DNA from: a virus
Length of the DNA stretch: 64,000 bases
Strand: one strand, 5' to 3'
IMG/VR virus record: IMGVR_UViG_3300027708_000025
Span: 32,001 to 96,000 of that record
Positions 697 to 12,614 of this stretch are shown piece by piece. The position numbers were made by a program, and so were the translations under genes. The notes below the pieces were generated by a model. The model ran no database searches. It had not been told where the DNA came from and saw only the letters and a program-made list of their open reading frames with translations. Each line of letters opens with the position of its first letter. Position 1 is the stretch's first letter.

Positions 697-884
697 TATG
701 CATTCTCCTTTGCCATATCATAACCATTAATAAAATCAGCATTTGAAAACAACGTATCGTTCCAACGCTTCTCAACTATCACTTCAACCCATTCAACTGG
801 ACAACCAACTTGCGCCGCAATGTCTTCACAAAGCATAACTGTGGTATCCAGCAATTCATTAATTTCAATTTCAATATCGCTCAT
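696..884 (-). CDS. hypothetical protein
   Basis: ORF track; TAATG coupling on both sides. Confidence 0.65.
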   Translation of the reverse strand: MSDIEIEINELLDTTVMLCEDIAAQVGCPVEWVEVIVEKRWNDTLFSNADFINGYDMAKENA

Positions 885-1048
885 TATGCATCCTCACGCA
901 TTGCACTAACACCAGTAAACATCAAAGCAAGTCCAGCAACAGCAAGTGCCATCTGGACAATCAAATCGGCATTGGGATTCACTTCAATGGTACCAACAGC
1001 ACCAAAGACAATCAGAAAACCGACAAGCATTCGAATAGAACCACGCAT
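884..1048 (-). CDS. small 2-TM membrane protein (MRGSIRMLVGFLIVFGAVG..., 54 aa)
   Basis: Hand-translated, not in ORF track; coupled by TAATG at both ends. Confidence 0.65.
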   Translation of the reverse strand: MRGSIRMLVGFLIVFGAVGTIEVNPNADLIVQMALAVAGLALMFTGVSAMREDA

Positions 1049-1311: not shown

Positions 1312-1515
1312 ACCAGCCATTTTGCTGTATATTGCTGGATAAACTGTTGCAATGGCTTTGGAAACTGTTGATTCTTTCTTACCATAAATCATAGCCACCA
1401 TTTGGATTTCAGTACTGACCGAACCATATCCACCACTCAAGTAAATTCCAGCTTTCATCTTTGCTAATTTAACAATCATTGTTTCGTATTTTAACATTTT
1501 TAACTCCTTTTTCAA
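1303..1515 (-). CDS. hypothetical protein
   Basis: ORF track; probable start MLKYET after SD AGGAG. Confidence 0.6.
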   Translation of the reverse strand: MKKELKMLKYETMIVKLAKMKAGIYLSGGYGSVSTEIQMVAMIYGKKESTVSKAIATVYPAIYSKMAGVA

Positions 1516-1526
1516 TCTATGAATCT

Positions 1527-1587
1527 ATTATACCAAAGTGCGACTATATGTCAACAACTATTTTCAAGGCTGTTGTTTTCTTGCAAC
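1527..1587 (-). promoter_or_regulatory. early promoter module: TTGACA-16-TATAAT plus GTTG-N8-CAAC
   Basis: -10 at 1527-1532, -35 at 1549-1554, box at 1572-1587. Confidence 0.85.
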
Positions 1588-2213: not shown

Positions 2214-2963
2214 TTAAGCCGCCATCAAAATAAGAGTAGGATACTTTACAAAACCAGTGGTGTCTTTTTTAGCTTTGCCTTTTGCATACAAGCCAACCAC
2301 AACACCTTTGGGATCAAGGAAACGCAAATCGGATTCGTCACCATTGAAAACTGGCATACCCATATAAGTCTCAGGCATTGGCAAAGTTTTCTTAATACCG
2401 AACACGGTAGCAACATTATAACCTTGTTGAATTGCTTTTGTAACATCGGAATCATTGCCGTCAGCGGCAGAGAATGTCAAATGGTAGTTAGCGATATCAA
2501 CAACTTTACGACCAAGAACCTTGGTGTAATCATAGAATTGGACTTCAGGAAAAGCGGTGAACATGTTACGGAACAATTGACCGTTACGGACAACTTCATA
2601 CTTTTCAAACGCAAGGTCGGAAGTACCATTCAAACGAAACACGGGAACAAGGTTCATCCGTTTGCTTTGTTTAATTGCTAATTCAATATCAGCAACAAGC
2701 AAAGTCATAAAATAATTACGGGTTTCAAAAAACATTTTGGTTTTGCGAATACGTGCTTTTTGAATAACGTTAGTGGTCTCGCCACGCTTAAACATACCAC
2801 CACGACCAGCGGTATTCAAACAGGCGGAAGTACAACCAGCGGTACGTTTAGGGCAAGTTTCATAACCACTCAAGTTAGCTGGCGCAAGGTGCAGAATGTA
2901 GGTATTGTAACCTTGTGACATTCCTTTAAGAACCTTGGGATTTCCAGTAGATAGTAGTTTCAT
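2214..2963 (-). CDS. GP88-family protein (Cys-rich, radical-SAM-like CxxxxxxCxxxC)
   Basis: Motifs CPKRTAGCTSACLNTAGRG, RLNGTSD, FYDYTK, GDESDLRFLD. Confidence 0.7.
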   Translation of the reverse strand: MKLLSTGNPKVLKGMSQGYNTYILHLAPANLSGYETCPKRTAGCTSACLNTAGRGGMFKRGETTNVIQKARIRKTKMFFETRNYFMTLLVADIELAIKQSKRMNLVPVFRLNGTSDLAFEKYEVVRNGQLFRNMFTAFPEVQFYDYTKVLGRKVVDIANYHLTFSAADGNDSDVTKAIQQGYNVATVFGIKKTLPMPETYMGMPVFNGDESDLRFLDPKGVVVGLYAKGKAKKDTTGFVKYPTLILMAA

Positions 2964-2997
2964 AAATTTCCGTTTCTTTTCTTAATCTCTAGACTCT

Positions 2998-3058
2998 AGT
3001 ATATCACAGTCGGAACACATGTCAACAACTATTTTCAAGGTTGTTGTTTTTCTGCAAC
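2998..3058 (-). promoter_or_regulatory. early promoter module: TTGACA-16-TATACT plus GTTG-N8-CAAC
   Basis: -10 at 2998-3003, -35 at 3020-3025, box at 3043-3058. Confidence 0.85.
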
Positions 3059-6233: not shown

Positions 6234-6308
6234 TGGTGGGCAGAGAGAGAATTGAACTCCCACTCAAGCGATTATGAGTCGCCTGCTTTACCATTAAGCT
6301 ACCTGCCC
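6234..6308 (-). tRNA. tRNA-Ile2(CAT), probable lysidine substrate
   Basis: Anticodon arm GGCGA-CTCATAA-TCGCT; encoded CCA. Confidence 0.8.
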
Positions 6309-6315
6309 TAAAACT

Positions 6316-6399
6316 TGGTATGAGAGGAGGGACTCGAACCCTCAATCCTTGCGGCGGGAGATTTTAAGTCTCCTGTGTATACCATTCCACCACTCTCAC
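6316..6399 (-). tRNA. tRNA-Leu(TAA)
   Basis: GGAGA-CTTAAAA-TCTCC; long variable arm; CCA. Confidence 0.92.
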
Positions 6400-6404
6400 A
6401 TAAC

Positions 6405-6481
6405 TGGCCTGACTGGAGGGATTCGAACCCCCGACCGACGGATTAGAAATCCGTTGCTCTATCCTACTGAGCTACAGTCAG
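6405..6481 (-). tRNA. tRNA-Arg(TCT)
   Basis: ACGGA-TTTCTAA-TCCGT; CCA. Confidence 0.92.
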
Positions 6482-6530
6482 AATTAATTTCTATACATGT
6501 AGTATAGTTTATATTGATTTGTGTGTCAAG

Positions 6531-6604
6531 TGGAGCGGGGTAGGAGAATCGAACTCCTGACTTCAGTTTGGAAGACTGAGGTAATACCATTTTACGAACC
6601 CCGC
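6531..6604 (-). tRNA. tRNA-Gly(TCC)
   Basis: TCAGT-CTTCCAA-ACTGA; TCCA end. Confidence 0.92.
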
Positions 6605-6610
6605 ATTTTT

Positions 6611-6684
6611 TGGCATCTCCTGAGAGACTCGAACTCCCACTTACGGTTTTGGAGACCGCAGTACTGCCATTATACTAAGGAGAC
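6611..6684 (-). tRNA. tRNA-Trp(CCA)
   Basis: GCGGT-CTCCAAA-ACCGT; GCCA end. Confidence 0.92.
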
Positions 6685-6689
6685 ATTTG

Positions 6690-7223
6690 TTACGGATTCT
6701 TTGCAGAATGTGGTACATCAAACACGAATGTAATCCTGTCTACTGTACCATTGTTCCACGCAGAATGATATTTCTTATTGTCAAACCAGAAAAATGTTCC
6801 TGGTTCTATTTGTCTTTCTTCACCATCTACTTCATACAAGTAAGTGCCTTGCAATGATAAATGATATCTATCTCTTGTCTCATAATATGTACCATCGTCA
6901 ACGTGGCGACCAACACTATCGTTTGGATTTAATTTAAAGAAAGCGGCTCTTGAAGTTTGCGTAATGTCGTGCTTCTTAAGATACTTTCTCACTTCAGTAT
7001 ACTTATCATAAAGCGGTGTGCGTCTTTGCAAATCAGAATTTTTAGGATTCTCATCTGGACTACGAACCATCGCCATCACTAGAGGAAGAAACCCATACGG
7101 ATTCTTTTCCCCACCAATCTTAGAATAAGTAGAAACTGCTTGCCAATCTGTATCGTCAATCTGCCCTAGAATTTTACTTATGTCAATTCCAGTTTCAATG
7201 AATCTAAAATTACTCATCATCAT
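6690..7223 (-). CDS. aspartyl/asparaginyl beta-hydroxylase-like 2OG-Fe(II) oxygenase
   Basis: HVD...RYHL...WFDNKKYHSA.N...RI motif. Confidence 0.8.
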   Translation of the reverse strand: MMMSNFRFIETGIDISKILGQIDDTDWQAVSTYSKIGGEKNPYGFLPLVMAMVRSPDENPKNSDLQRRTPLYDKYTEVRKYLKKHDITQTSRAAFFKLNPNDSVGRHVDDGTYYETRDRYHLSLQGTYLYEVDGEERQIEPGTFFWFDNKKYHSAWNNGTVDRITFVFDVPHSAKNP

Positions 7224-7869
7224 ATTCCATCAATTGCATACTTCCCGTATGCGGAAAATCGTATCTATCAAAGTGGTCAAAATTTGTTTTACCAATTGGC
7301 ATAATATTCACACCAACAATGATTCTATAATTGCAATCAGTAGGACTTGTTTGATGCGTTGCCCATGCGGGAAACATAACTAACGTACCTGCGACAAAAG
7401 GTAACTCTTCTTGAGACTTCAACATCAATTCATTTTTATCTGAAATTGCAGGTTGTATTACATATTTCTCTGCACCTAGATTTGGAAATACTGTTCCGCT
7501 TGCATTACCATCAGCATCAAACAAATGAAATGAACCACCCAAGAAACTATTCGCATGACTGTGCATGTGATGAAAGCCACCAGCTTTTTGTCTAGTCGCC
7601 CACATACTTGTAATCCCACACTCATCATAATAACCCATATCATCCATTGCATACTTACCACAACTGTGAATGAAGTCTGTTAACTTTTTAACTTTATCAT
7701 CTTTGTGTAAGTTTGCTCTAGTGATTTGAAGCCCATTCCTTTCACGTTCAGAAAGATATAGATTATCCTGTGCAAGATATCGCACTAAGAATTCTTGGTC
7801 ATTCTCAAAGTTTGGATAATGAAATCTCCAAACTGGTGTGTAGAATAGTTTATGTAATTCGACTTTCAT
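7210..7869 (-). CDS. 2OG-Fe(II) oxygenase (TIGR02466-like)
   Basis: HSH.NS...G.LVMFPAW..H...RI motif. Confidence 0.8.
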   Translation of the reverse strand: MKVELHKLFYTPVWRFHYPNFENDQEFLVRYLAQDNLYLSERERNGLQITRANLHKDDKVKKLTDFIHSCGKYAMDDMGYYDECGITSMWATRQKAGGFHHMHSHANSFLGGSFHLFDADGNASGTVFPNLGAEKYVIQPAISDKNELMLKSQEELPFVAGTLVMFPAWATHQTSPTDCNYRIIVGVNIMPIGKTNFDHFDRYDFPHTGSMQLMEYDDE

Positions 7870-8045
7870 TTGTTTTCAAACTCATCATCATACAAACCCA
7901 TCTCTTGGCTGATACGAACCATTTCATCCAATGCGGCTTCTTGGCGTTTTTTTGCAAATGCTCTTTGCTCTTCTTCGGTTCCTAATTCATATCCTTTATC
8001 AGAATGAATCTCTTCGGCTGCCGCAATATTCTTTTTGTCTATCAT
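7866..8045 (-). CDS. hypothetical protein (MIDKKNIAAAEE..., 59 aa)
   Basis: Hand-translated; ATGA overlaps on both sides. Confidence 0.55.
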   Translation of the reverse strand: MIDKKNIAAAEEIHSDKGYELGTEEEQRAFAKKRQEAALDEMVRISQEMGLYDDEFENK

Positions 8046-8515
8046 AAAATCACCCTATGATATTCGTAATTAACTGTATCTTCATTTTCTCTAAAAACAA
8101 CTGCACCATTACGCAAATGAAAACGTCTAGCCAATTCAGTCTTTGGACTTAGCGTAAGGTATCTTTGAATTTCTGGTTTGTTTTCTTTGATGTGACTAAC
8201 AGCATCAAAAATTAATGTACGACCGGCACCTGGAGCATAACTCCAAATGGTATAAAAAATTGCAACAATAGGTTCAGATGAAACTTGAAATAACTCTGTT
8301 TCTTTTGTTGGAATTTCTGTCTGATAACTTACGCATGTGATTGCTTTCACTTTGTCATCTGGATCACGCAACACAAAGATATCTTTGTTGTCGCCAACCC
8401 TATCAACATGTGGAATATGAGGGCGCACAGGATCCTCACTTAACATACTCATTACACTATCAGTAAAAGATTTTATTAGATATAACATTTTTTTATTCTC
8501 ATTTTTTATTCTCAC
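8042..8515 (-). CDS. GNAT-like hypothetical protein
   Basis: YTIWSY.PGAGR.L...A.RFH..NG resembles acetyltransferase motifs A/B. Confidence 0.5.
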   Translation of the reverse strand: MRIKNENKKMLYLIKSFTDSVMSMLSEDPVRPHIPHVDRVGDNKDIFVLRDPDDKVKAITCVSYQTEIPTKETELFQVSSEPIVAIFYTIWSYAPGAGRTLIFDAVSHIKENKPEIQRYLTLSPKTELARRFHLRNGAVVFRENEDTVNYEYHRVIL

Positions 8516-8528
8516 TTCTCTACATTAA

Positions 8529-8603
8529 TGGTGGAGGATGGGAGGATCGAACTCCCACTTCAGACTTGCAAAGCCCATGTGCTCCCATTATCACTAATCC
8601 CCC
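8529..8603 (-). tRNA. tRNA-Ala(TGC)
   Basis: Loop TTTGCAA; G3:U70; CCA. Confidence 0.9.
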
Positions 8604-8605
8604 AT

Positions 8606-9130
8606 TTAACTCGGTGTTATGGTGTTAAACGAAATCACCGTTTTTCTTTTATGTCCTAAGTTTATAGGAGAACGATGCCACAAAGTTGCTGGCATCGTTA
8701 AAATATAACCTTCTTCGACATTAGGAATTACAATAGATTCTGTTTTTTGATTCCTAATTTGAGTCTTAACATCATCACTTGGTAACTCCAGATAATAAAC
8801 ATTTGTCCAATTTGCTGTGCCATGAACATGCCAACCATGAAAACTATTGTTATAGTACTGTTGAAACCAACAATTTAAATATCCAAATTGGGTAAATCCT
8901 AATTTTGAATATACATTTTTCATATGCTCAGTTAGAGAAGGACGTAAAATATTCCAATATTTTCTCTCGACATTCTCTTCAACATACCAATCAGTATTAG
9001 TAATTTTTTTGTCATCATTGATAAAAATTGACATACTATCAATGCTTTTGAGAAGAACATTTTTTAAATTGTCATGTTCTTCAAATTTAGATACCGCATA
9101 TGGACAGTCAATGTAATTGATATCAATCAT
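8606..9130 (-). CDS. 2OG-Fe(II) oxygenase
   Basis: WFQQY...H.WHVH...VYY...PATLWHRS...KTVISFN. Confidence 0.8.
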   Translation of the reverse strand: MIDINYIDCPYAVSKFEEHDNLKNVLLKSIDSMSIFINDDKKITNTDWYVEENVERKYWNILRPSLTEHMKNVYSKLGFTQFGYLNCWFQQYYNNSFHGWHVHGTANWTNVYYLELPSDDVKTQIRNQKTESIVIPNVEEGYILTMPATLWHRSPINLGHKRKTVISFNTITPS

Positions 9131-9145
9131 TATTTTTCAATAAAT

Positions 9146-9349
9146 TTATTTTAGCATTTCTACAACTTCTTCTAGTGTCTCACTTACTTCCCATGTGCCA
9201 TGAGGAGGTCCATAAACAAATGTTACATCTTCAATTACTCCATCTTCACGGGTAACAGTATTTCTGTGTATCGTAACAATTAAATCTTTTCTGATTGAAA
9301 CTTTGTGTCCTCTAAACTCTGGACTTGAATTCGTTAGTGTTATAAACAT
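9146..9349 (-). CDS. small FlbD-like hypothetical protein
   Basis: FI.LT...I...V.ETLEEV pattern. Confidence 0.5.
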   Translation of the reverse strand: MFITLTNSSPEFRGHKVSIRKDLIVTIHRNTVTREDGVIEDVTFVYGPPHGTWEVSETLEEVVEMLK

Positions 9350-9375
9350 GATATTATCCTTTAAAATTATTAAAC

Positions 9376-9449
9376 TGGTCTCGGTAGCAGGAATCGAACC
9401 TACGCTCTATCGTCCCAAACGACAAGTGATACCATTTCACCATACCGAG
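9376..9449 (-). tRNA. tRNA-Pro(TGG)
   Basis: TGTCG-TTTGGGA-CGATA; CCA. Confidence 0.92.
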
Positions 9450-9450
9450 T

Positions 9451-9458
9451 TATTTATA
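9451..9458 (-). promoter_or_regulatory. possible T4-type late promoter TATAAATA
   Basis: Exact consensus between tRNA-Thr and tRNA-Pro; a start site would fall inside tRNA-Pro, so function is uncertain. Confidence 0.3.
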
Positions 9459-9459
9459 C

Positions 9460-9533
9460 TGGTGCCCCATGACAGAATCGAACTGCCGTTACCTGAGTAC
9501 AAAACAGGTGTTCTACCATTTAACTAATAGGGC
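9460..9533 (-). tRNA. tRNA-Thr(TGT)
   Basis: CCTGT-TTTGTAC-TCAGG; CCA. Confidence 0.88.
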
Positions 9534-9538
9534 GAAAC

Positions 9539-10282
9539 TTAAATTGCTTTCTCAATTATATTCTTAGCTAAATTATCCACATCGGCTCTTATGGTGCCTC
9601 CGAGAATAACAATTGCATACTGCTCACCATTCTTATGTACTATCATAACAAGACACTTACCAGCCGCATTCGTTGTGCCAGTTTTGGATACTTCAATGAT
9701 ATCAAATTTATTCATCAACTTCACGTTAGTGTTATTGACTGAAATGTGTTTTTCTTTATTCTTCTTATCTACAACAGTTAAATCGTATCTACTCAATGCT
9801 GATATCTCACGTATTTTATCATGTCTATACGCATCTGTCAACAAGACAACCAAGTCCCTTGCGGTACTGGTATTCCTTGCGCTTAGACCAGACGTATCAT
9901 CAAATTTTGTATTGTACATCTCTAGCGCAATTGCACGTTTATTCATTTGGTAAACTGTCCACAATTTACCGCCCATGCTTTCTGCTAATGCTTCTGCGGC
10001 TCTGTTGTCACTTTTGATTAACATTAAATTTAATAATTCTTCTCTAGTAAACTTATTGTGTGAATAAAACATTCCTTTGTATGGAACTTTCTCATTCAAT
10101 GGAACTCCACTTTCAATTATGACAAGTGCGGTCATCAATTTTGTAATGCTTGCTATTGGTCTTATTGTATCAATTTCAGAATCAACAATTGGATACTGTT
10201 TAGTGATATTGTATGTGTAGACTGTAATCGCACTAGCACTTAATGCCGACAGCAATACTAAAGATAAGATTATTTTTTTCAT
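9539..10282 (-). CDS. D-alanyl-D-alanine peptidase, S11 family (PbpG-like)
   Basis: Signal peptide MKKIILS; SxxK (ASITKLMTA), SxN (SDN) and KTG motifs; start corrected to 10282. Confidence 0.85.
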   Translation of the reverse strand: MKKIILSLVLLSALSASAITVYTYNITKQYPIVDSEIDTIRPIASITKLMTALVIIESGVPLNEKVPYKGMFYSHNKFTREELLNLMLIKSDNRAAEALAESMGGKLWTVYQMNKRAIALEMYNTKFDDTSGLSARNTSTARDLVVLLTDAYRHDKIREISALSRYDLTVVDKKNKEKHISVNNTNVKLMNKFDIIEVSKTGTTNAAGKCLVMIVHKNGEQYAIVILGGTIRADVDNLAKNIIEKAI

Positions 10283-10296
10283 ATGATTCTTTGTAA

Positions 10297-10371
10297 TGGC
10301 TCCAGAGGCAGGGATCGAACCTACGACCAATTGATTAACAGTCAACTGCACTACCGCTGTGCTACTCTGGA
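10297..10371 (-). tRNA. tRNA-Asn(GTT)
   Basis: GTTGA-CTGTTAA-TCAAT; GCCA. Confidence 0.93.
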
Positions 10372-10379
10372 ATAGAAAA

Positions 10380-10455
10380 TGGTTGCGGGTGAAGGATTCG
10401 AACCTCCGTCCTTTAGGTTATGAGCCTAATAGTCTGACCTCTGACGTAACCCGCT
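10380..10455 (-). tRNA. tRNA-fMet(CAT)-like
   Basis: CAT anticodon; 1:72 mismatch; ACCA. Confidence 0.78.
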
Positions 10456-10469
10456 ATAATATATATGTA

Positions 10470-10545
10470 TGGAGTGAGTGACAGGACTCGAACCTGCATT
10501 ATACGGACTTGCAAACCGTTGCCTAGCCTTTCAGCGCACACTCAC
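10470..10545 (-). tRNA. tRNA-Cys(GCA)
   Basis: Loop TTGCAAG; U73 discriminator. Confidence 0.88.
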
Positions 10546-10552
10546 ATAAATT

Positions 10553-10680
10553 TGGCGCTCTACAGGATTCTCACCTGTTCACTGGAGACCCTATAATCAG
10601 GGTTTTTATCCCTCTACTGCCATGAATTGCGAATTCATCGTAGAACCCAAGTTGCGAACTTGGCGTGGAAATATCAGAGC
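10553..10680 (-). ncRNA. tRNA-like structured RNA with CCA end and twin TTCGCAA hairpins
   Basis: GCTCT/AGAGC-GCCA acceptor-like stem; T-arm ACAGG-TGAGAAT-CCTGT; three further hairpins. Confidence 0.7.
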
Positions 10681-10687
10681 ATAAACT

Positions 10688-10762
10688 TGGCGGTCTGTAG
10701 GAGAATCGAACTCCTGTAAGTGGATAGACAATCCACAGTAATAACCTCTATACGAACAGACC
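10688..10762 (-). tRNA. tRNA-Asp(GTC)
   Basis: GTGGA-TTGTCTA-TCCAC; GCCA. Confidence 0.9.
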
Positions 10763-10768
10763 AAAACT

Positions 10769-10853
10769 TGGTGGAGATGATAGGGATCGAACCTATTGTG
10801 ACTTAAGTCGGAAGATTTACAGTCTCCTGCCATACCATTACGGCGGCATCTCC
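10769..10853 (-). tRNA. tRNA-Tyr(GTA)
   Basis: GGAGA-CTGTAAA-TCTTC; long variable arm. Confidence 0.92.
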
Positions 10854-10854
10854 A

Positions 10855-10980
10855 TGGTATTAGATTAGTTGACGCACTATTTGCTACGCTCAACGGAATT
10901 AGTGGCCACCTTACCGTTTATGTACGCAGTTACTCAGGCGTTACGATTGCCCATGGCTTACGTCAACTAATCTAATACCA
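10855..10980 (-). ncRNA. putative structured ncRNA closed by a perfect 20-bp stem
   Basis: TGGTATTAGATTAGTTGACG (10855-10874) / CGTCAACTAATCTAATACCA (10961-10980). Confidence 0.65.
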
Positions 10981-10981
10981 C

Positions 10982-11183
10982 ATTTAATTACACTGGATGA
11001 TTGACAAAAATAACAGTTTTGAACCTGCCCTACCATGTCGTCCATGGATTTGCTTGTCAACCACATTACAGACCAAGTTGTTCCAGCGTGATTCGCTCGT
11101 TCATGTAATCTAGAAGTGCCAGTCCGTCAACTGGTTCTCACTTGTTAAATTACCTACTGGCTTGGTAACCAATGTAATTAAAT
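10982..11183 (-). ncRNA. putative multibranched ncRNA closed by a 15-bp stem
   Basis: ATTTAATTACATTGG / CCAGTGTAATTAAAT (one G-U on minus strand) plus several internal helices. Confidence 0.6.
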
Positions 11184-11184
11184 C

Positions 11185-11260
11185 TGGTACACCTAGGGGG
11201 AATCGAACCCCTCGTTTGCGCCTTGAAAGGGCGCCGTCCTAACCGTTAGACGATAGGTGC
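11185..11260 (-). tRNA. tRNA-Glu(TTC)
   Basis: GCGCC-CTTTCAA-GGCGC; CCA. Confidence 0.92.
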
Positions 11261-11306: not shown

Positions 11307-11369
11307 AGTATAACACTCTAAACATTTCCTGTCAACAACTATTTTTGGTAACTGTTGTTTTTTATTAAC
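11307..11369 (-). promoter_or_regulatory. internal tRNA-array promoter: TTGACA-17-TATACT plus degenerate palindrome
   Basis: -10 at 11307-11312, -35 at 11330-11335, box at 11354-11369. Confidence 0.8.
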
Positions 11370-11371
11370 AC

Positions 11372-11459
11372 TGGCAGAGAGTATGAGATTCGAACTCATG
11401 CACCGCTTTCGCAATGACAGTTTAGCAAACTGCTCCTTTAACCACTCAGGCAACTCTCT
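11372..11459 (-). tRNA. tRNA-Ser(GCT)
   Basis: GCAGT-TTGCTAA-ACTGT; long variable arm. Confidence 0.92.
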
Positions 11460-11462
11460 ATA

Positions 11463-11552
11463 TGGCGGAAGCGGTGAGATTCGAACTCACGGAACATTTC
11501 TGTTCGCTAGTTTTCAAGACTAGTGCCATAAACCGGACTCGACCACACTTCC
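11463..11552 (-). tRNA. tRNA-Ser(TGA)
   Basis: CTAGT-CTTGAAA-ACTAG; long variable arm. Confidence 0.92.
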
Positions 11553-11558
11553 ATAACT

Positions 11559-11633
11559 TGGTGCGCCCTGAGAGAATCAAACTCCCACTTCAACGTTCGT
11601 AGCGTTGTGTAATATTCATTTTACTAAAGGCGC
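11559..11633 (-). tRNA. tRNA-Arg(ACG)
   Basis: CAACG-CTACGAA-CGTTG; CCA. Confidence 0.88.
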
Positions 11634-11644
11634 ATAAAAACATT

Positions 11645-11721
11645 TGGTGCCCTCTCTCAGATTCGAACTGAGACTTTACGGCTTCTAAGACCGATCTCTC
11701 TACCAATTGGAGTAAGAGGGC
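11645..11721 (-). tRNA. tRNA-Leu(TAG), short variable arm
   Basis: TCGGT-CTTAGAA-GCCGT; 5-nt variable region; A73. Confidence 0.82.
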
Positions 11722-11724
11722 ATT

Positions 11725-11798
11725 TGGTTCCCAGAGCAAGAATCGAACTTGCGATAAAGGCTTATCAAGCCTACGTTATACCATTTAACTATCCGGGA
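11725..11798 (-). tRNA. tRNA-Ile(GAT)
   Basis: TAGGC-TTGATAA-GCCTT; CCA. Confidence 0.9.
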
Positions 11799-11804
11799 TT
11801 AATT

Positions 11805-11958
11805 TCGATTTTCATCTCCCACTACTAACTATTGCTTCCCAATTTATCGTCCATTGGCACCCGTGGTAGGGCTTTCAATGCTCATCGGCCTTGCGTTCTA
11901 GCGCAAGTGATCCTTGGGATAGGACTGCTAGGCCTTAACTTGCCTAGCATCAAGTGAA
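11805..11958 (-). ncRNA. putative structured ncRNA between tRNA-Val and tRNA-Ile
   Basis: Hairpins TGCTAGGC/GCCTAGCA, GTCCT/AGGAT, CTTGCG/CGCAAG, CATTG..GCCC/GGGT..CAATG. Confidence 0.5.
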
Positions 11959-11959
11959 T

Positions 11960-12034
11960 TGGTACCTTGTGACAGGATCGAACTGCCGACCTTCTCCTTG
12001 TAAGGGAGACACTCTACCGCTGAGTTAACAAGGC
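11960..12034 (-). tRNA. tRNA-Val(TAC)
   Basis: TCTCC-CTTACAA-GGAGA; CCA. Confidence 0.93.
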
Positions 12035-12043
12035 AATTTTCTT

Positions 12044-12119
12044 TGGGGTGACCTATGGAATTCGAATCCATGCTATCGGAATCACAATCCGAGGTGCTAA
12101 CCGCTGACACTAAGGTCAC
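12044..12119 (-). tRNA. tRNA-His(GTG)
   Basis: TCGGA-TTGTGAT-TCCGA; C73. Confidence 0.9.
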
Positions 12120-12131
12120 ACCAAAGAAAAC

Positions 12132-12206
12132 TGGTAGGGGCACCGAGAATTGAACTCGGATTTACTGGTTAAAAGCCAGCTACTCTAGCCGTTGAGTTAT
12201 ACCCCC
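12132..12206 (-). tRNA. tRNA-Lys(TTT)
   Basis: GCTGG-CTTTTAA-CCAGT; CCA. Confidence 0.92.
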
Positions 12207-12210
12207 AAAT

Positions 12211-12285
12211 TGGTGGTGACAGTTGGATTTGAACCAACGACCGATTGCGTATGAAGCAATTGCACTACCGCTGTGCTATGTCACC
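12211..12285 (-). tRNA. tRNA-Met(CAT), elongator
   Basis: ATTGC-TTCATAC-GCAAT; CCA. Confidence 0.85.
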
Positions 12286-12292
12286 TTTTATT

Positions 12293-12366
12293 TGGCAGAG
12301 GGTACAAGGATCGAACTTGTGCTAACAGAGTCAAAGTCTGGTGTGCTACCGCTACACTAACCCCCA
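12293..12366 (-). tRNA. tRNA-Gln(TTG)
   Basis: CCAGA-CTTTGAC-TCTGT; GCCA. Confidence 0.9.
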
Positions 12367-12389
12367 ACATAAAAAATATGGATGCAAAT

Positions 12390-12401
12390 TGTTAAAGAAC
12401 G
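12390..12401 (-). promoter_or_regulatory. boxA antitermination site CGTTCTTTAACA
   Basis: Near-consensus rrn boxA about 24 nt before the first tRNA of the array. Confidence 0.8.
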
Positions 12402-12426
12402 TTTGTAATATATTCGATGATATACA

Positions 12427-12467
12427 CAAAGAAAAACCCCCTAGAGTTTTCAGTCTCTAGGGGGCTT
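12427..12467 (-). terminator. intrinsic terminator of the putative attenuator
   Basis: CCCCCTAGAG-ACTGAAAA-CTCTAGGGGG followed by TTTTTCTTTG. Confidence 0.85.
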
Positions 12468-12516
12468 GTCTTTGTATTCTCTTTGGACTTATGGTCCTCA
12501 GGTATAACAAGCCCCC
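12460..12516 (-). promoter_or_regulatory. antiterminator helix
   Basis: GGGGGCTTGT (12516-12507) is perfectly complementary to ACAAGCCCCC (12469-12460), which overlaps the terminator 5' arm. Confidence 0.75.
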
Positions 12517-12614
12517 ATCACTGGTGCGTGGCAATCGGATTTCTCTGAGCGAGAAATACTCTGCCACGTAATCGGCATATAATTTCTTGTTGAGAGTTTC
12601 GATATTAAATTCAT
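12498..12614 (-). CDS. putative attenuator leader peptide MNLISKLSTRNYMPITWQSISRSEKSDCHAPVMGACYT (38 aa)
   Basis: Hand-translated; ATG 1 nt after the upstream stop; 19 different amino acids; overlaps the antiterminator strand. Confidence 0.7.
   Translation of the reverse strand: MNLISKLSTRNYMPITWQSISRSEKSDCHAPVMGACYT

Follow-up and report, generated by a model that had tools for sequence, protein, structure and literature searches.

The minus strand of a 64,000-nucleotide (nt) stretch of virus DNA, hereafter called the window, carries a probable transcription attenuator, operated by ribosomes, that precedes a phage transfer RNA (tRNA) array. The window is taken from the IMG/VR virus record IMGVR_UViG_3300027708_000025, and the element lies between a gene for a MazG-like nucleoside triphosphate pyrophosphohydrolase and the first tRNA gene. 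It consists of a short leader open reading frame (ORF), an intrinsic terminator and two complementary strands, termed R2 in the last codons of the ORF and R3 at the 5′ side of the terminator, which can pair to form an antiterminator helix. Comparison with related leaders, together with folding calculations, established the anatomy of the element, its conservation, the covariation of R2 with R3, the specificity of their complementarity for the heads of tRNA operons and the thermodynamic feasibility of the switch. The first-pass annotation, made from the letters of the window alone, had described a pan-tRNA-sensing attenuator; the core of that reading, a translated leader with an antiterminator and a terminator, is supported by the comparative evidence, whereas the pan-tRNA sensing is not.

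All six features listed in that annotation were found on the minus strand of the window. The MazG stop codon TAA is followed, after 1 nt, by the ATG of the leader, whose 38 codons include 31 distinct ones, as had been noted, and specify 19 amino acids with Phe missing; no run of clustered regulatory codons was found in it. The leader ORF lies 132 nt from tRNA-Gln on the same strand, an arrangement common to all relatives. R2 (GGGGGCUUGU, 12516-12507) ends 6 nt before the stop codon and has a perfect 10-nt complement at 12469-12460, or 11 nt counting a terminal G-U pair. This complement comprises five flank bases and the first five bases of the terminator 5′ arm, and the terminator stem thus holds only its five C. 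The annotation had placed the whole complement in the 5′ arm of a terminator spanning 12427-12467; the match is as perfect as claimed, and it starts 2 nt outside that span. The terminator itself is composed of a 5′ arm (12464-12455), an 8-nt loop (12454-12447), a 3′ arm (12446-12437) and a U-tract (12436-12428), which can pair with an A-rich tract upstream of the terminator. The antiterminator helix (11 bp) and the terminator 5′ arm overlap by 5 nt.

The attenuator region folds with z = -6.9 against dinucleotide shuffles. The duplex between the leader 3′ end and the 5′ flank plus arm of the terminator has an energy of -22.8 kcal/mol, corresponding to a z of about -4.4 to -5.1 against shuffles, compared to upstream-complementarity z values of +0.2 and -0.3 for the other two strict terminators in the window. 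The R2:R3 complementarity in the window exceeds chance. Two further hairpins accompany these elements. The hairpin H1, formed by codons 16-30 of the leader, shows a G-C to A-U double change of its outer stem in L002-type relatives; it is a candidate pause or synchronizing hairpin for RNA polymerase, which a ribosome in the middle of the ORF would melt. The small hairpin just past the stop codon lies inside the antiterminator loop, and its 3′ arm can alternatively pair with R2; it is kept in place despite changed arms in L113- and L095-type relatives. An Rfam search at a permissive threshold found nothing above the gathering score in the region. The closest candidate, His_leader (RF00514), was rejected, as it scored 28.5 bits against a gathering score of 49 and reached 27.2 bits on the opposite strand, which marks it as a generic match to a terminator-like hairpin.

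Homologues of the window leader, designated family A, were gathered by MazG protein, DNA pattern and peptide alignment from viral and metagenome contigs, nearly all of them freshwater; the whole comparative set comprises ~90 leaders of five sequence types. The 35 distinct sequences of family A encode 25 distinct peptides. The leader frame is open in all of them, and the other two frames contain stops, so that the conserved short ORF for which an alignment of related leaders had been suggested is intact in every variant. Insertions and deletions within the ORF are all multiples of three nucleotides (+3 twice, +6 twice and -3), compared to 1-2 nt just past the stop codon; in one sequence a 1-nt insertion exactly at the stop adds three extra codons. 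In every variant the start codon lies within 4 nt of the MazG stop or overlaps it, in three configurations (stop, 1 nt and start, in addition to two kinds of overlap). Parsimony assigned 48, 39 and 68 changes to codon positions 1, 2 and 3, respectively, and the ratio of nonsynonymous to synonymous substitution rates (dN/dS) is ~0.64 in frame, compared to 1.19 and 1.68 in the other frames. Altogether, this is good indirect evidence that the family-A leader ORF would be translated and its peptide under weak constraint. Moreover, R2, the stop-codon context and R3 are invariant in family A even at synonymous sites, indicating an added constraint at the RNA level. The intrinsic terminator between the leader and the tRNA genes is kept in all relatives with varying sequence.

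The pairing of R2 with R3 was evaluated over 21 distinct R3 types by computing the duplex between the last 15 codons of each leader and the terminator flank plus arm. Cognate duplexes have a mean energy of -18.2 kcal/mol compared to -13.0 kcal/mol for non-cognate ones, a mean reached by none of 20,000 permutations, and every one of the 21 types gives a duplex z between -2.0 and -7.8 against shuffles. A second family of leaders from other T4-like freshwater phages, family B, provides covariation in a plain MAFFT alignment of 30 leaders, built from sequence only with no structure fitted. In this alignment a 13-pair helix has 81.7% of its cells paired, compared to 37-57% in registers slid by 1-3 columns; five pairs are altered on both sides, and the covariation score was reached by one of 500 shuffles. 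The close relatives L257 and L266 have G-C and A-U, respectively, at a flank pair that is not part of the terminator stem, an exchange explained only by the R2:R3 helix. Compensatory changes between terminator and antiterminator, proposed earlier as a check on the reading, were thus found both across the 21 types and as double changes within family B. The predicted antiterminator helix is mutually exclusive with the terminator, with which it shares 5 nt, and the cognate pairing, the covariation and the specificity described next indicate that it is maintained by selection.

As a control for specificity, all fetched phage DNA was scanned for strict terminators. Those followed by a boxA-like motif (n=53) have a median upstream-complementarity z of -4.5, compared to 0.0 for the others (n=109), and the few outliers among the latter are mostly further leaders. 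The antiterminator complementarity is specific to terminators heading tRNA operons. In addition, of the 56 tabulated variants, 50 have a predicted R2 separated from the stop codon by only 0-8 nt, which places it within the footprint of a terminating ribosome.

The competition between the two structures was followed by folding. When the window transcript is grown base by base, R2 pairs initially with the nearby segment 12492-12485, and the R2:R3 helix is part of the minimum free energy (MFE) structure while the transcript 3′ end runs from 12464, where R3 has emerged, to 12441, where the terminator 3′ arm is almost finished. Once the hairpin is complete, the antiterminator and terminator states lie within ~1 kcal/mol of each other, and the terminator clearly wins only after the U-tract pairs with the upstream A-rich tract, i.e. 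past the decision point. Among 47 distinct leaders, the antiterminator is in the MFE structure of 40 when the transcript is cut before the 3′ arm, and the median energy gap between the two states is +1.0 kcal/mol. A ribosome was then modeled as a 28-nt mask in thermodynamic folding. The 11-bp antiterminator survives in the presence of the full hairpin when the A site of the modeled ribosome is at codons 15-29. Once the A site is at codon 32 or beyond, or at the stop, folding yields the 10-bp terminator. Thermodynamic masking places the predicted switch between codons 29 and 32, as the geometry had predicted, and reproduces the caveat that stalls after about codon 29 would mask the antiterminator. 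The window stop codon lies 33 nt upstream of the terminator stem. In E. coli, terminators located >30 bp past a stop codon are fully efficient, and the ribosome represses those at shorter distances (PMC4824070); accordingly, a terminating ribosome in the window should mask R2 and leave the terminator undisturbed.

We propose that the early transcript of the MazG operon carries the leader, and that ribosomes would enter it by termination-reinitiation at the MazG stop. A ribosome reaching the last codons or the UGA before the terminator is made would cover R2 (12516-12506), and the terminator (12464-12437) would then form. With a late ribosome, or one stalled at up to about codon 29, R2 would pair with R3 (12470-12460), removing half of the terminator 5′ arm; the antiterminated polymerase would pass the terminator and the boxA-like motif, and the tRNA genes would be transcribed. 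Having many different codons instead of one run, the switch would report slow decoding generally, as a multivalent sensor of ~16 amino acids in the window. What we infer in this course of events is that the ORF is translated, that ribosome and polymerase compete kinetically, and which physiological signal is read.

The same layout recurs in leaders of dissimilar sequence. Family B was found via the hairpin of a promoter cassette (described below) and subsequently a conserved 18-mer. Its ORF has 34-44 codons and its own promoter, and starts either leaderless, with an ATG 6 nt after the -10 box, or with GGAG and a TTG or GTG start codon. It contains a mid-ORF hairpin and an R2-like stretch in the last codons; the stop codon, which may be TAA, TGA or TAG, lies 24-36 nt ahead of a terminator whose sequence is unlike that of family A. 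The family-B peptide has a strongly conserved 14-residue core. Homology between the family-A and family-B peptides was considered and rejected, since a profile comparison found no similarity. Three minor leader types share the layout, namely C (L044), D (L167 and L210) and E (L185). In L044 the family-A N-terminal part is joined to a 3′ half and a terminator that are unlike those of family A, and an exact 17-mer search for its relatives gave only unrelated chance matches. L167 (~1390-1540, plus strand) and L210 (~7850-8000, plus strand) each possess a leaderless ORF of 30 codons and an R2:R3 complement of 10 bp; the terminator abuts the first tRNA with no promoter between, and the leader holds only 16 amino acids. 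L185 (~2600-3050, plus strand) has a 44-codon ORF with all 20 amino acids ahead of the terminator, and its candidate antiterminator strand lies just past the stop codon. A structured stretch with a T-arm-like end was also observed in L185, between the next promoter and the following cassette.

In family B and D leaders the ATG lies 6-7 nt after a -10 box, and the promoter is dedicated to the leader. The leaderless members of family B (L258, positions 870-983, minus strand; L260, L203, L259, L164 and L240) display TTGCCA, a 17-nt spacer, TATAAT and an ATG 6 nt further on. Messages of the L258 type are probably leaderless and would exist solely for the leader ORF and the switch.

Most leaders contain 19-20 amino acids within 34-42 codons. 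All 20 occur in 14 of the 25 family-A peptides, the remaining leaders having 17-19, as well as in L185 and, with the initiator counted as Met, in most family-B peptides. The chance of finding all 20 is 0.001-0.003 for 34-38-residue segments of proteins from these phages, and 0.0025-0.05 for open frames from dinucleotide-shuffled leaders; family A was counted as a single observation for amino-acid completeness. When only the codons at which a stall would free R2 are considered, the L114-type subfamily has all 20 amino acids in 31 codons (P 0.0002), and the median for family B is 17 amino acids in 26 codons (P ~0.05). A broad multivalent sensor is therefore plausible and statistically hinted at.

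A correspondence between leaders and tRNA repertoires was also examined. The window has neither Phe in the leader nor tRNA-Phe in the array, and in family A two different non-Phe leader alleles accompany arrays without tRNA-Phe. The most variable leader codon (window 12546-12548, minus strand), in the loop of the inner hairpin, specifies Phe, Ser, Leu, Ile or Thr. In the arrays compared for the Phe allele (L003, L013, L014 and L118 versus the window, L007 and L098), Phe leaders mostly occur with a tRNA-Phe after tRNA-Arg, and the Ser and Leu alleles occur with arrays lacking tRNA-Phe. The idea that the leader mirrors the tRNA repertoire was rejected as a rule, as there are few independent Phe events and L011, L125 and L120 are exceptions. 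Among other phages, the arrays of L257, L268, L269 and L305 cover all 20 amino acids; those of L270, L286 and L259, which follow family-B leaders and have 24-28 tRNAs, cover all amino acids but Tyr, and their leaders contain Tyr.

ARAGORN detected 24 tRNA genes in the window array, of which tRNA-Gln starts at 12366. The promoter scan predicted an internal promoter near 11335-11307, after the first ten tRNAs, in agreement with the earlier caveat that a promoter at 11307 could drive the distal 14 independently. In many freshwater T4-like phages a promoter cassette was observed at the heads of and inside tRNA arrays, consisting of a GTTGTA...ACAAC hairpin, a consensus -35 box, a 17-nt spacer, an extended -10 box, a conserved 16-nt hairpin, the boxA-like motif and a tRNA; examples are the window itself (11307-11335, minus strand), L164, L190, L193, L194, L222 and L245. 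The family-A promoter that follows the terminator in most relatives similarly has a consensus -35 box, a 17-nt spacer and an extended -10 box, succeeded by a short hairpin, the boxA-like motif and the first tRNA. In the minority lineage of the window, a 22-nt sequence stands in place of the ~70 nt that contain promoter and hairpin, and the boxA-like motif is kept. Other family-A variants without the promoter are L003, L005, L014, L118, L121 and L134, and independently L145, so that the promoter was lost at least twice. A candidate promoter that lies after the window terminator and before tRNA-Gln was discarded, as it has only a 9/12 match and its -10 hexamer ends on the first tRNA base. Since no credible promoter precedes tRNA-Gln, the first ten window tRNAs should depend on read-through of the terminator.

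The boxA-like motif follows every tRNA-operon promoter cassette in the relatives. In the window (12400-12389) it is identical at 11 of 12 positions to the E. coli rrn boxA. This suggests that Nus-factor antitermination may have been borrowed to shield long untranslated tRNA arrays from Rho.

Several observations weigh against an attenuator that senses tRNA shortage, or narrow its scope. R2 and R3 do not vary within family A, and the covariation therefore comes from the other families. In L203, L044 and L145, R2 ends 11-22 nt before the stop codon and would be poorly covered by a ribosome standing there. Before R3 emerges, R2 has the nearer partner at 12492-12485, and the naked full-length RNA slightly favors the terminator; together these make the kinetic outcome in a ribosome-free transcript uncertain. 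A strong sigma-70 promoter stands after the terminator in 27 of the 34 distinct family-A variants, where the switch would only add to array transcription and not be its sole control. As for the breadth of sensing, a tree-aware simulation gave no significant sign of selection for keeping all 20 amino acids in family A (P 0.12-0.19); the 19-20 amino acids of the relatives are no more than descent and site conservation predict. The codons of the window leader at which a stall frees R2 hold 16 amino acids in 29 codons (P 0.28), and Ala, Val and Gly occur only in its masked tail (codons 30-35). Moreover, leader and array mismatch in five family-B phages, involving Tyr, Cys, Val or Ala. The term pan-tRNA, which the first-pass annotation had chosen, is too strong for this window: only 16 amino acids would be sensed, the retention of 19-20 in close relatives is no more than expected from descent, and the amino acids absent from leaders bear no consistent relation to the tRNAs absent from arrays. 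Nor do the data support a leader that mirrors the tRNA set one to one. In a wider and more tentative reading, which we hold to be possible and somewhat doubtful, 'all-amino-acid' leaders of ~35-40 codons, built to include nearly every amino acid and found in several families with no detectable similarity, would form a class of general decoding-speed meters in freshwater T4-like phages. The leader would be translated in a race with RNA polymerase, and when starvation or a host anticodon nuclease depletes or cleaves nearly any tRNA, the delayed ribosome would open the gate to the full tRNA set of the phage.

The strongest competing explanation, though an unlikely one in our judgment, is that the element is a translation-coupled insulator or a fixed leak-setter that senses no tRNA, so that codon content would be irrelevant; in a variant of it, termination would depend on whether the upstream message is translated, as between early and late infection or between coupled and uncoupled polymerases. 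It differs from the tRNA-sensing attenuator only in what the switch responds to. The strong promoter that most relatives carry immediately behind the terminator would fit insulation between two units, and the nearly isoenergetic RNA states would suit a partial terminator; the absence of a one-to-one match between leader and array repertoires, and a sensing zone in the window leader that is not unusually diverse, are likewise in its favor. However, a leak-setter needs no conserved ORF, frame or coupling, nor an R2 in the last codons across dissimilar leader families. The dedicated promoter of families B and D, which yields only leader and switch, fits poorly with insulation, and the recurring content of 19-20 amino acids would be left unexplained.

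The remaining explanations share a difficulty, as covariation, tRNA-head specificity and the position of R2 in the last codons count against all of them. That the ORF encodes a small functional protein of the early operon, followed by an ordinary terminator, with the complementarity incidental or serving 3′-end stability, is improbable. Some purifying selection (dN/dS 0.64) and invariant residues, together with the strongly conserved 14-residue core of family B, are what such a protein would show, but it would not account for the covariation of R2 with different terminators or the contrast to the 109 other terminators, nor for two dissimilar peptide families in the same slot with the same RNA layout. 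Pfam and PHROG searches with the leader peptides gave no match, tblastn found no cultured phage carrying family-A or family-B peptides, and R2 does not vary even at synonymous sites. We regard as very improbable a TnaC- or SecM-type arrest element, in which the nascent peptide would hold the ribosome at the UGA under some ligand or condition and thereby decide on terminator formation. Invariant Trp, Gln, Arg, Glu, His and Pro, in addition to the last five residues, lie within ~22 residues of the conserved UGA and would be inside the exit tunnel with a ribosome at the stop; however, the H1 arms and R2 explain much of this conservation at the RNA level, the family-B peptide is different and its stop codons vary. 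We recognized no known arrest motif in the peptide. Messenger RNA 3′ ends with terminators are a common origin of small RNAs, and the least probable alternative, which we regard as highly improbable, is a trans-acting small RNA made from the last ~100 nt of the MazG message and the terminator, with a conserved single-stranded seed. The strong terminator with its U-tail and the conserved non-coding bases between stop and terminator would agree with it, whereas frame conservation, R2:R3 covariation and the exclusive association with tRNA-operon heads would remain unexplained, and no Rfam family matches.

The record from which the window was taken (bases 32001-96000) has 150,107 bp with terminal repeats. 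It encodes a T4 gp43-type DNA polymerase with ~53% identity to cyanomyophage counterparts, and comes from a T4-like freshwater phage that is uncultured; the region gave no match in near and distant DNA searches of GenBank phages, among which there is no close relative. The MazG-like ORF matches PHROG 4856 (nucleoside triphosphate pyrophosphohydrolase) with an E-value of 1.8e-24, and its T4-like phage homologues found by tblastn are annotated as MazG or nucleoside triphosphate pyrophosphohydrolase. A 270-residue ORF with a peptidase-like PHROG match (9539-10351, minus strand) was observed midway along the array, flanked by tRNA-Asn and tRNA-Thr. The coordinates of the individual features are given in Table 1.

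Table 1. Features of the putative attenuator and the tRNA array, in window coordinates
Feature	Position	Strand	Basis or remark
MazG-like nucleoside triphosphate pyrophosphohydrolase ORF, 93 residues	12616..12897	minus	ORF list, PHROG match
Leader ORF, 38 codons + UGA stop	12498..12614	minus	Coupled to MazG stop as TAA-A-ATG
Hairpin H1, leader codons 16-30	12527..12568	minus	MFE fold
R2, predicted antiterminator 5′ strand, codons 33-36	12506..12516	minus	Sequence; duplex energy
Small hairpin just past stop, 4-bp stem, 5-nt loop	12485..12497	minus	Incremental folding
R3, predicted antiterminator 3′ strand	12460..12470	minus	6 nt of 5′ flank + first 5 nt of terminator 5′ arm
Intrinsic terminator, 10-bp G+C-rich stem	12428..12464	minus	Terminator scan, folds
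Short replacement sequence at promoter position of relatives	12401..12427	minus	Alignment, tally, promoter scan
boxA-like motif	12389..12400	minus	Sequence; 28 nt past U-tract
First tRNA block: Gln, Met, Lys, His, Val, Ile, Leu, Arg, Ser, Ser	11372..12366	minus	ARAGORN, promoter scan
Remaining 14 tRNAs, downstream of internal cassette-type promoters	6234..11260	minus	ARAGORN, promoter scan

Why phages carry large tRNA sets, and when these are used, is a long-standing question. Current ideas are codon compensation and escape from tRNA-cleaving defenses of the host (for example, eLife 2023, PMC10264068). If the tRNA-sensing attenuator exists as proposed, at least some phages would make replacement tRNAs on demand when decoding slows, leader-peptide attenuation of amino-acid and resistance genes would extend to tRNA genes and to a sensor beyond one amino acid, and the element could provide a simple portable reporter of translation stress. 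The comparative set offers natural mutants for testing the proposal, with covarying switch strands and with variants that have or lack the downstream promoter. A full-text literature search found no description of attenuation of phage tRNA genes, in line with the earlier statement that no phage tRNA array is known to be controlled in this way.

The mechanism would be that of known leader-peptide attenuation. The leader attenuators of enterobacteria (trp, his, leu, thr, ilvGMEDA and pheA) likewise have a short ORF, a terminator and an alternative helix that takes the 5′ arm, as well as a hairpin in the leader that could pause polymerase; in them a ribosome at the end of the ORF leads to termination and an earlier stall to read-through, as is proposed for the phage leader, and the thr and ilv leaders are already multivalent. 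However, the phage leader has no run of regulatory codons (31 distinct codons in 38) and no separate region 1, the antiterminator strand itself lying in the last codons. Family A is coupled to the upstream gene, and family-B members are leaderless or use a ribosome-binding site and promoter of their own. The Rfam leader models stay below threshold, and the regulated genes are tRNAs instead of biosynthetic enzymes, in an element carried by a phage.

Closer in outcome are the antibiotic-sensing leaders of vmlR (Bacillus), msrD and mef/mel (streptococcal), ermK and yxjB, in which a stall in the leader frees an antiterminator and a gene relieving the translation problem is turned on, polymerase pausing helping to synchronize both machines (PMC9226507, PMC10314930, PMC4335068, PMC6851288). 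Their signal is a ribosome-bound drug at a particular peptide context, whereas no drug is implied for the phage leaders, and the output is tRNA. The pyrBI and pyrE attenuators of E. coli depend on the distance between ribosome and polymerase, with no specific regulatory codon. The sign of pyrBI is opposite: there a close ribosome blocks the terminator hairpin, whereas in the phage a close ribosome would block the antiterminator and cause termination. This coupling-sensitive attenuation of pyrBI/pyrE is mentioned in PMC4824070.

With regard to leaderless starts, the family B and D leaders are comparable to the leaderless polycysteine short ORFs of mycobacteria, which control downstream genes via translation speed (bioRxiv 10.1101/834739). 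The window leader is not leaderless, and the mycobacterial ORFs sense one amino acid through runs of Cys by another mechanism than the phage leaders. The boxA-like motif resembles the rrn-type boxA, a loading site for NusB/NusE, in being one position off the E. coli boxA and in heading a long untranslated structured transcript; it differs in that it precedes phage tRNA arrays and itself follows either an attenuator or a promoter cassette of the phage. Altogether, the phage element would be a case of known leader-peptide attenuation that departs from its precedents in having no run of regulatory codons, in controlling tRNA genes and in residing in phages.

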